Shown here in pieces: positions 30,184 through 30,331 of a stretch of DNA of 64,000 nucleotides. Below the pieces are notes generated by a model that worked only from the letters and a program-made list of their open reading frames with translations, made no database searches and had not been told where the DNA came from. The DNA is from Escherichia coli (lineage in GTDB: Bacteria; Pseudomonadota; Gammaproteobacteria; Enterobacterales; Enterobacteriaceae): NCBI RefSeq assembly GCF_003334405.1, contig NZ_QOWM01000009.1. One strand, 5' to 3'. The position numbers and the translations under genes are program-made. How positions within the stretch are numbered: position 1 is the first letter of the stretch; each line of letters opens with the position of its first letter.

Positions 30184-30222
30184 TGCTGGATAGCACCGTC
30201 AAGCTAAATTCCGTACTGAACG

Positions 30223-30263
30223 GTCCCCTCGCCCCTTTGGGGAGAGGGTTAGGGTGAGGGGAA
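30223..30263. repeat. GC-rich extragenic palindromic element between yhfS and frlR
   Basis: GTCCCCTCGCCCCTTTGGGGAGAGGGTTAGGGTGAGGGGAAC with nested CCCCTC / GAGGGG complementarity. Confidence 0.4.
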
Positions 30264-30285
30264 CGTACGGGATGTAAAATTCAAC

Positions 30286-30331
30286 GCGCCAGCATCGCCG
30301 GATGCGATGCTGGCGCATCTTATCCGGCCTA
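30286..30331. repeat. REP-like element with 13-bp perfect hairpin (likely convergent terminator)
   Basis: GCGCCAGCATCGC-cggat-GCGATGCTGGCGC (30286-30316) followed by ATCTTATCCGGCCTAC, the REP 3' consensus. Confidence 0.65.

Follow-up and report, generated by a model that had tools for sequence, protein, structure and literature searches.

INTRODUCTION

The REP and BIME elements of Escherichia coli were reportedly described by Stern et al. in 1984 and by Gilson et al. in 1991. The BoxC repeats are said to go back to Bachellier and Hofnung in the 1990s, and the PIT element is reportedly due to Hoyne and Maher in 2000.

A total of 23 motifs termed TMECO were reported for MG1655 by Holder et al. 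(NAR 2015, PMC4666352), who state that the motif was originally named BoxC in the 1990s and was rediscovered in 2000 as the PIT (potential intrastrand triplex) element. In that study, neither gene class nor distance nor operon position was associated with BoxC, and no link to gene regulation was found; genomic instability was observed around BoxC, and its mechanism was left unclear (PMC4666352). In the case of REPs, functional information is available at the RNA level. REP hairpins shield the mRNA upstream of them against 3' exonucleases, and transcripts terminated by Rho are shortened as far as the REP (PMC6061677; bioRxiv 10.64898/2026.03.23.713779). REP325 was found to be a stabilizer and a partly Rho-dependent terminator, REPs were described as context-dependent, and a REP is present in 207 of the 704 convergent gene pairs (bioRxiv 10.64898/2026.03.23.713779). 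According to PMC7967276, which summarizes Liang et al. 2015, a REP located at most 15 nt from a stop codon lowers the amount of the encoded protein.

The gap between the convergent genes yhfS and frlR can be compared with each of these systems. Its GC-rich segment shares with the BoxC family the 36-nt core, the published locus, the intergenic location, the multi-copy nature and the conserved flanks (PMC4666352). There is no difference in the core, and only the left outer flank, CCGTAC, departs from the consensus; the yhfS/frlR BoxC is a single copy, whereas five other BoxC loci of MG1655 are inverted pairs of types A and B. The second element shares with REP and BIME sequences the head GCCGGATGCG and the tail CTTATCCGGCCTAC, the imperfect palindrome, and the extragenic location between convergent genes. 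Here, however, the REP is solitary and not part of a BIME, although the same 38-mer is a BIME component elsewhere, and it is accompanied upstream by an extra self-complementary arm of 13 nt that is absent at the other copies inspected. As in the case of REP325/naRNA4 of the yjdMN operon, a REP hairpin of a 3' UTR has Rho-dependent termination in its vicinity, but REP325 consists of several REPs arrayed between tandem genes, whereas one REP lies between convergent genes at yhfS/frlR; the Rfam score of the yhfS/frlR REP is sub-threshold.

It is very probable that the block in this gap corresponds to two unrelated, already catalogued dispersed repeats that adjoin in the 3' spacer of convergent operons, namely, a BoxC and a REP with an acquired 13-nt arm. 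Given that both are long-known intergenic families of E. coli, the finding as such is ordinary.

RESULTS AND DISCUSSION

Composition of the yhfS/frlR gap

The window, i.e., the entire stretch of 64,000 nucleotides that was analyzed, is E. coli K-12-like and has the orientation opposite to that of MG1655, window position w corresponding to position 3535118-w of NC_000913.3. The gap and its surroundings contain the following features.

30181-30183, plus strand: stop codon of yhfS, the last base of which (30183) forms the left border of the gap
30184-30334: intergenic gap between the convergent genes yhfS and frlR, 151 bp
30207-30275, plus strand: approximate full BoxC unit including the family-conserved flanks, from a 17-copy alignment
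30212-30217 and 30265-30270, plus strand: outer stem of BoxC, the inverted repeat CCGTAC/GTACGG
30226-30261, plus strand: BoxC/PIT/TMECO core of type 'A mm', CCCTCGCCCCTTTGGGGAGAGGGTTAGGGTGAGGGG, which is TMECO no. 15 at MG1655 3504892-3504857
30272-30281, minus strand: tail AATTTTACAT, 3 nt past a 16-bp hairpin, weakly similar to an intrinsic terminator
30286-30298, plus strand: locus-specific 13-nt arm GCGCCAGCATCGC, exact reverse complement of the REP interior at 30304-30316
30297-30334, plus strand: canonical REP, GCCGGATGCGATGCTGGCGCATCTTATCCGGCCTACGG, which on the frlR mRNA starts 2 nt past the stop codon
30335-30337, minus strand: stop codon of frlR, the last base of which (30335) forms the right border of the gap

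The initial annotation had proposed that this gap holds two elements, one of them REP-like, and this was borne out: they are two different extragenic repeats, one of them a REP. The predicted fold of the gap has an energy of -73.3 kcal/mol on the plus strand (z = -5.5) and of -68.7 kcal/mol on the minus strand (z = -5.8), and in either case none of 200 shuffles was as stable. Since the fold is better than that of all 200 shuffles and since the BoxC and REP parts are both multi-copy per genome, the features of the block are not a product of chance. The annotation of NC_000913 contains no repeat feature inside the gap, so that no REP number can be assigned to the REP.

A 51-amino-acid ORF on the minus strand (MIIKDINRRPDKMRQHRIRRCWRVEFYIPYVPLTLTLSPKGRGDRSVRNLA, 30199-30354) is composed wholly of REP and BoxC sequence. 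In the annotation of BLR(DE3), a hypothetical protein is placed at the position of this ORF, which is probably a spurious call due to the repeats.

The BoxC element

The GC-rich segment at 30223-30263 (gtCCCCTCGCCCCTTTGGGGAGAGGGTTAGGGTGAGGGGaa) has the architecture CCCCTCGCCCC-TTT-GGGGAGAGGG-TTA-GGGTGAGGGG, in which each of the two G-tracts is a possible pairing partner of the C-tract, confirming the nested CCCCTC/GAGGGG complementarity noted initially. The segment had not been matched with confidence to any named repeat family, but it was identified here as a member of the BoxC/PIT/TMECO family. All 36 bases of the core as well as its coordinates equal those of TMECO no. 15 in Table 1 of PMC4666352, in which entries 7, 11, and 15 carry the identical 36-nt sequence; Table S2 of the same study locates no. 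15 between frlR and yhfS, 73 nt from the former and 41 nt from the latter. Cores of the family are 34 to 37 nt long and consist of a C-tract, a loop of 3 to 4 nt, a G-tract, a loop that reads TTA in type A or CCG in type B, and a further G-tract; positions 30226-30261 show this organization, with the loop of type A.

A blastn search with positions 30205-30277 in 5,426 complete E. coli genomes yielded between 1 and 33 places per genome for the BoxC part, the median being 17. The segment, for which a search for further genomic copies had been suggested, is consequently neither unique nor non-conserved. The copies at twelve other MG1655 loci are all intergenic, and no further copy with up to 3 mismatches was found within the window. 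When 17 copies from MG1655 and O157 were aligned, the consensus was GnGCnCGnnCnGTC-core-AAnnnnnnnGCAC, to which the yhfS/frlR copy conforms except for divergence in its left flank; the GC-rich element is therefore a repeat of more than 41 nt. The BoxC part was predicted to fold with -34.2 kcal/mol on the plus strand and with -27.3 kcal/mol on the minus strand.

In the K-12-type allele, the left flank CCGTAC is the perfect complement of the right flank GTACGG, and the family consensus at this place is GCGCNCGG. GCGCC/GCTCGG stands in place of the K-12-type CCGTAC in the family consensus, in the O157 allele, and in the allele from which most of BoxC is deleted (see below). Judged from these alleles, the substitution cluster in the left flank of the K-12-type BoxC looks like the result of template switching within a quasi-palindrome. 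A direct repeat, AAATTC (30207-30212 and 30276-30281), was considered as a target-site duplication and rejected, as other copies are without this repeat and as BoxC was not excised precisely in the BoxC-deleted allele.

The REP element and its additional arm

Positions 30297-30332 follow the REP pattern GCC(G/T)GATG ... ATC(C/A)GGCCTAC, which has GTAG on the complementary strand and forms an imperfect palindrome of 35 to 40 nt. The head and tail of this REP (GCCGGATGCG...CTTATCCGGCCTACGG) are identical to those of a REP at 22523-22556 of the same window, and its canonical stem pairs 30297-30310 with 30315-30328, i.e., 14 nt with 86% complementarity. The interior appears to resemble the "Z2" class of REPs, and the ends the "Y" class. 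At megablast stringency, the variant at 30297-30334 was detected at a median of 5 places per genome, and the identical 38-mer is present in other strains within BIMEs at caiF/caiE and loiP/speB. An Rfam search of 29900-30600 with E values up to 10 retrieved naRNA4, which is derived from REP325, with a sub-threshold 31.7 bits versus a gathering score of 59.5; the only other matches in this region were chance similarities to microRNAs and frameshift elements.

A perfect 13-bp inverted repeat, GCGCCAGCATCGC/GCGATGCTGGCGC, is formed by 30286-30298 and 30304-30316 with a loop of 5 nt, and the hairpin lengthens to 16 bp on the minus strand RNA. The perfect hairpin at 30286-30316 had thus been described correctly, but not its assignment as the 5' part of the REP: the left arm is almost wholly outside the REP consensus, overlapping the 5' end of the element at 30297-30298 only, whereas the right arm is REP interior. 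For the latter reason, the 13-bp hairpin competes with the canonical REP stem. The REP part was predicted to fold with -31.3 kcal/mol on the plus strand and with -33.4 kcal/mol on the minus strand. The 13-nt arm is absent upstream of the other inspected copies of the same REP, at caiF/caiE and loiP/speB. When the arm was compared with an inverted REP, of which it could be a remnant, only 13 nt matched, and the sequence further upstream is unlike a REP tail.

Distribution among strains

Using junction-specific searches, the 5,426 complete E. coli genomes were found to have four main architectures, with about 205 genomes outside them.

yhfS-BoxC-REP-frlR, as in the window: 2,864 genomes
yhfS-REP-frlR, with most of BoxC deleted and a gap of 107 bp: 91 genomes, e.g., strains 042 and elppa4
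yhfS directly beside yhfL, with 30185-35426 absent: 1,924 genomes, e.g., 536 and L3Cip3
trpS-BoxC-REP-frlR, with 22491-30219 absent (O157:H7 type): 342 genomes

The comparison across strains that had been proposed initially thus identified the full block in 2,864 of the 5,426 genomes. Two segments differ in presence between these architectures.

22491-30219: yhfZ-yhfS (php) cluster, absent in O157:H7-type genomes, with its right boundary in the left flank of BoxC
30185-35426: segment absent in genomes of the 536/L3Cip3 type, comprising BoxC, REP, frlRDCBA, and part of the region upstream of frlA

The left boundary of the latter segment is located 1 nt past the yhfS stop codon. The block travels with frlR: genomes without the php/yhf cluster retain it, those without the frl operon do not, and it sits at the meeting point of two independently variable clusters, frl and php/yhf. 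TMECO 15 was scored as "region missing" in 28 of 56 strains by Holder et al. (PMC4666352). The position of the block may be of use for the interpretation of pangenome breakpoints and for the recognition of spurious ORFs made of repeats. The possibility that the indel of the frl operon is mediated by BoxC was rejected, there being no repeat at its far boundary. The junction between the right flank of BoxC and the spacer had no match among 100,044 species genomes, a result of little weight because the E. coli representative in this set probably is without the frl operon.

In the BoxC-deleted allele, which is present in elppa4 (107-bp gap at 1651-1757 of the fetched locus), 042, and 89 others, GGTCCCCTC is joined directly to AACGCGCC. 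About 51 nt of BoxC have been lost, the endpoints share only the dinucleotide TC, and an 8-nt insertion, TTCGGCAA, is located closer to yhfS. Further peculiarities were noted in individual loci: in O157:H7 TX 376-2, frlD is annotated as a pseudogene with an internal stop (3947-4732 of the fetched locus), and in AST19, yhfS is frameshifted (65-1194 of the fetched locus) and the match is 44 bp longer than the query. A hairpin downstream of yhfL (GCCCTCGGAAAATCCAGAGGGC, from window position ~35427 onward) is present whether or not a genome has the frl operon; its position is just within the conserved side of the boundary of the frl segment (3181-3256 in two fetched loci).

Recombination between BoxC copies

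In strain E2865, the php cluster (yhfZ-yhfS) is located between two direct BoxC copies, one after trpS (BoxC-1) and one after yhfS (BoxC-2), that are 7,699 bp apart (cores at 513 and 8212 in window orientation) and share 43 identical bp. The O157:H7-type genomes (342 of 5,426) lack this 7.7-kb cluster and have one chimeric BoxC, which combines the left flank of BoxC-1 with the right flank of BoxC-2 (2986-3115 of the fetched O157:H7 locus). The 60 nt to the left of this junction are identical to the BoxC-1 flank (60/60) and match the BoxC-2 flank at 18 positions, whereas the 60 nt to the right match the BoxC-2 flank at 55 positions and the BoxC-1 flank at 18. The identical segment in which the crossover would have taken place has a length of 43 bp. 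The junction of trpS and BoxC-1 was detected in 1,866 genomes, including strains that possess the full K-12-type block.

As read from these junctions, the O157-type chimera is a signature of homologous recombination between two direct BoxC copies, and by the same reading, the BoxC copy is a recombination substrate at the DNA level. The direction of the event was most likely a deletion, for the sole reason that the php cluster is widespread; an integration via BoxC (Campbell-type) leaves the same junction. The number of 342 is a count of genomes and may correspond to one event or to several. The chimera explains the absence of php/yhf from O157:H7-type strains with no need for an exotic DNA structure, and it provides a concrete mechanism for one case of BoxC-associated instability. 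Otherwise, the block is of little importance, since both elements are catalogued and the exact BoxC copy is contained in the 2015 paper.

At the site that is occupied by BoxC-1 in other strains, a different element is present in the K-12-type.

22519-22612: BIME (two inverted REPs) downstream of trpS, in the K-12-type

Different repeat families hence occupy one and the same intergenic site next to trpS, a BIME in the K-12-type and a BoxC in 1,866 other genomes. Between this BIME and yhfZ, a hairpin resembling an intrinsic terminator (AAACCGGGGAAACCCGGTTTTTTT, 22638-22661) was identified that is conserved in E2865.

Transcription across the gap

Information on transcript ends is available from Adams et al. 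(eLife 2021, PMC7815308), whose supplementary file 2 contains a region of Rho termination with a peak at MG1655 3504972 on the plus strand, which in the window corresponds to the following feature.

30146, minus strand: Rho-termination peak in the frlR sense, past both repeats and antisense within yhfS (PMC7815308)

The region has a Rho score of 3.6 (p = 1.3e-6) and low read counts, with 55 upstream and 33 downstream reads without bicyclomycin versus 66 and 144, respectively, with bicyclomycin (PMC7815308); because the score is derived from 800-nt windows and the read counts are low, the position of the peak is approximate. The increase in downstream reads from 33 to 144 upon Rho inhibition indicates that RNA polymerase moving in the frlR direction passes both structures. 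Read-through of both structures, which had been named initially as an outcome that would speak against their role, is thus supported in the frlR direction. The Term-seq tables of the same study contain no 3' end at 3504600-3505099, a result that has little weight either way because these operons are poorly expressed under the conditions of that study.

Alternative explanations

The initial annotation had stated that neither structure has a U-tract and that both probably act in transcript stabilization or convergent termination. Close to this view is the idea that the convergent transcripts of yhfS and frlR both end at the block by intrinsic (Rho-independent) termination, the block being a bidirectional terminator; this is considered decidedly unlikely. 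Very stable hairpins are indeed present on both strands, and about 40% of the REPs between convergent genes are located within predicted bidirectional terminators (bioRxiv 10.64898/2026.03.23.713779). In the frlR sense, the 16-bp stem is followed by GAAUUUUACAU, which was flagged by a simple terminator scan, so that the statement on the missing U-tract applies to the yhfS-sense (plus) strand, where none follows either hairpin, but not to the frlR-sense strand with its weak terminator-like tail. However, this tail is short, interrupted, and separated by 3 nt from the stem; the scan produced this single match versus a shuffle expectation of 0.8; and a GC-rich hairpin directly followed by a U-tract was found on neither strand. 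Some intrinsic termination of frlR transcripts may occur at this tail, but the rise in downstream reads under Rho inhibition signifies that the block alone does not stop the polymerase in this direction, and Term-seq has no 3' ends in the gap. With no U-tract on the plus strand and a Rho region past both repeats, the proposed function in convergent termination, understood as intrinsic termination, is not supported. Far less probable still, to the point of being negligible, is that the block encodes a small protein (the 51-amino-acid ORF at 30199-30354 on the minus strand) or a small RNA, or that it is a protein-binding regulatory site for the frl/yhf operons. The ORF extends across both repeats and has been annotated as a hypothetical protein in one genome, but it is made of repeat sequence, and the weak Rfam match to naRNA4 (31.7 versus the gathering score of 59.5) reflects mere REP similarity. 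REP325, the source of naRNA4, caused no measurable chromosome compaction (bioRxiv 10.64898/2026.03.23.713779), thousands of genomes have the flanking genes but only half of the block or none of it, and no functional class is associated with the neighbors of BoxC (PMC4666352).

At the DNA level, BoxC could act via an intrastrand purine-motif triplex that stalls replication or repair and thereby actively causes local rearrangements, such as the deletion of the hairpin and the loss of flanking clusters. This is held to be unlikely, even though an oligonucleotide of type 'A mm', the control sequence of which derives from exactly this 36-mer, formed a stable triplex in vitro with a Tm of about 74 C, and CD and NMR showed the triplex in vitro for oligonucleotides of this type (PMC4666352). 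In the same study by Holder et al., a polymerase stop was observed at a TMECO in primer extension, and TMECO loci were found to be more variable than control loci; yet in vivo DMS footprinting revealed no guanine protection, and the authors call the mechanism unclear (PMC4666352). Of the rearrangements at yhfS/frlR, the loss of most of BoxC in 91 genomes through a short-homology (TC) deletion would agree with such an activity, but the large O157-type event is explained by ordinary homologous recombination over 43 identical bp, and BoxC is missing from the other boundary of the frl-operon indel.

Proposed role at the RNA level

For a block composed of a BoxC and a REP with an additional arm, the data on transcription suggest that both structures act as 3'-UTR hairpins and not as precise intrinsic terminators. 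Rho would end frlR-sense transcription downstream of both repeats, and the frlR transcript would then probably be trimmed back to the REP/arm hairpin (about -31 to -33 kcal/mol), resulting in protection of the frlR mRNA; this would agree with the trimming to REP hairpins described for other Rho-terminated transcripts (PMC6061677). As the REP begins 2 nt past the stop codon of frlR, and hence within the 15 nt for which an effect of REPs near stop codons has been described, it may lower the yield of FrlR. The BoxC hairpin may likewise cap the yhfS transcript. Of the transcript-stabilizing role suggested initially for both elements, the part that concerns the REP is plausible by analogy with other REPs, for which the upstream mRNA would be that of frlR; the part that concerns BoxC is not supported, given the missing link to regulation in PMC4666352. 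Most likely, BoxC has no dedicated function in expression and is a selfish or neutral passenger.

BoxC in other genera

A scan of species genomes revealed, among the matches listed, multiple copies of the exact type-A core of E. coli in Pseudomonas, Stutzerimonas, Devosia, Azospirillum, Asticcacaulis, and Enterobacter, as well as in metagenome-assembled genomes labeled Ca. Kuenenia and uncultured low-GC bacterium. In each genus among these matches, the core is set inside different, genus-specific longer repeats. BoxC could accordingly be imagined as an actively maintained, horizontally spreading module with a putative mobilizing or homogenizing machinery, which would serve as a portable recombination site at this locus, next to a REP arm selected for frlR. 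This reading appears improbable, and BoxC is not known to be mobilized by any mechanism. If it were correct, BoxC would make the neighboring php/yhf cluster excisable, with which the O157-type chimera agrees, and the extra arm of the REP would have been selected to turn the REP into a terminator or stabilizer for frlR.

Two further observations concern related repeats outside the gap. In MG1655, a REP (GCCAGATGCGACGCTGACGCGTCTTATCTG...) lies about 30 nt downstream of the BoxC between fimH and gntP, and the yhfS/frlR gap is hence not the only place where BoxC and REP are paired. Degenerate REP-like palindromes, GCCTGATGCACAATGTTTATCAGGC and GCCGGATAACGCGTTCACGCCGTATCCGGC, are located at 9544-9649 of the window.
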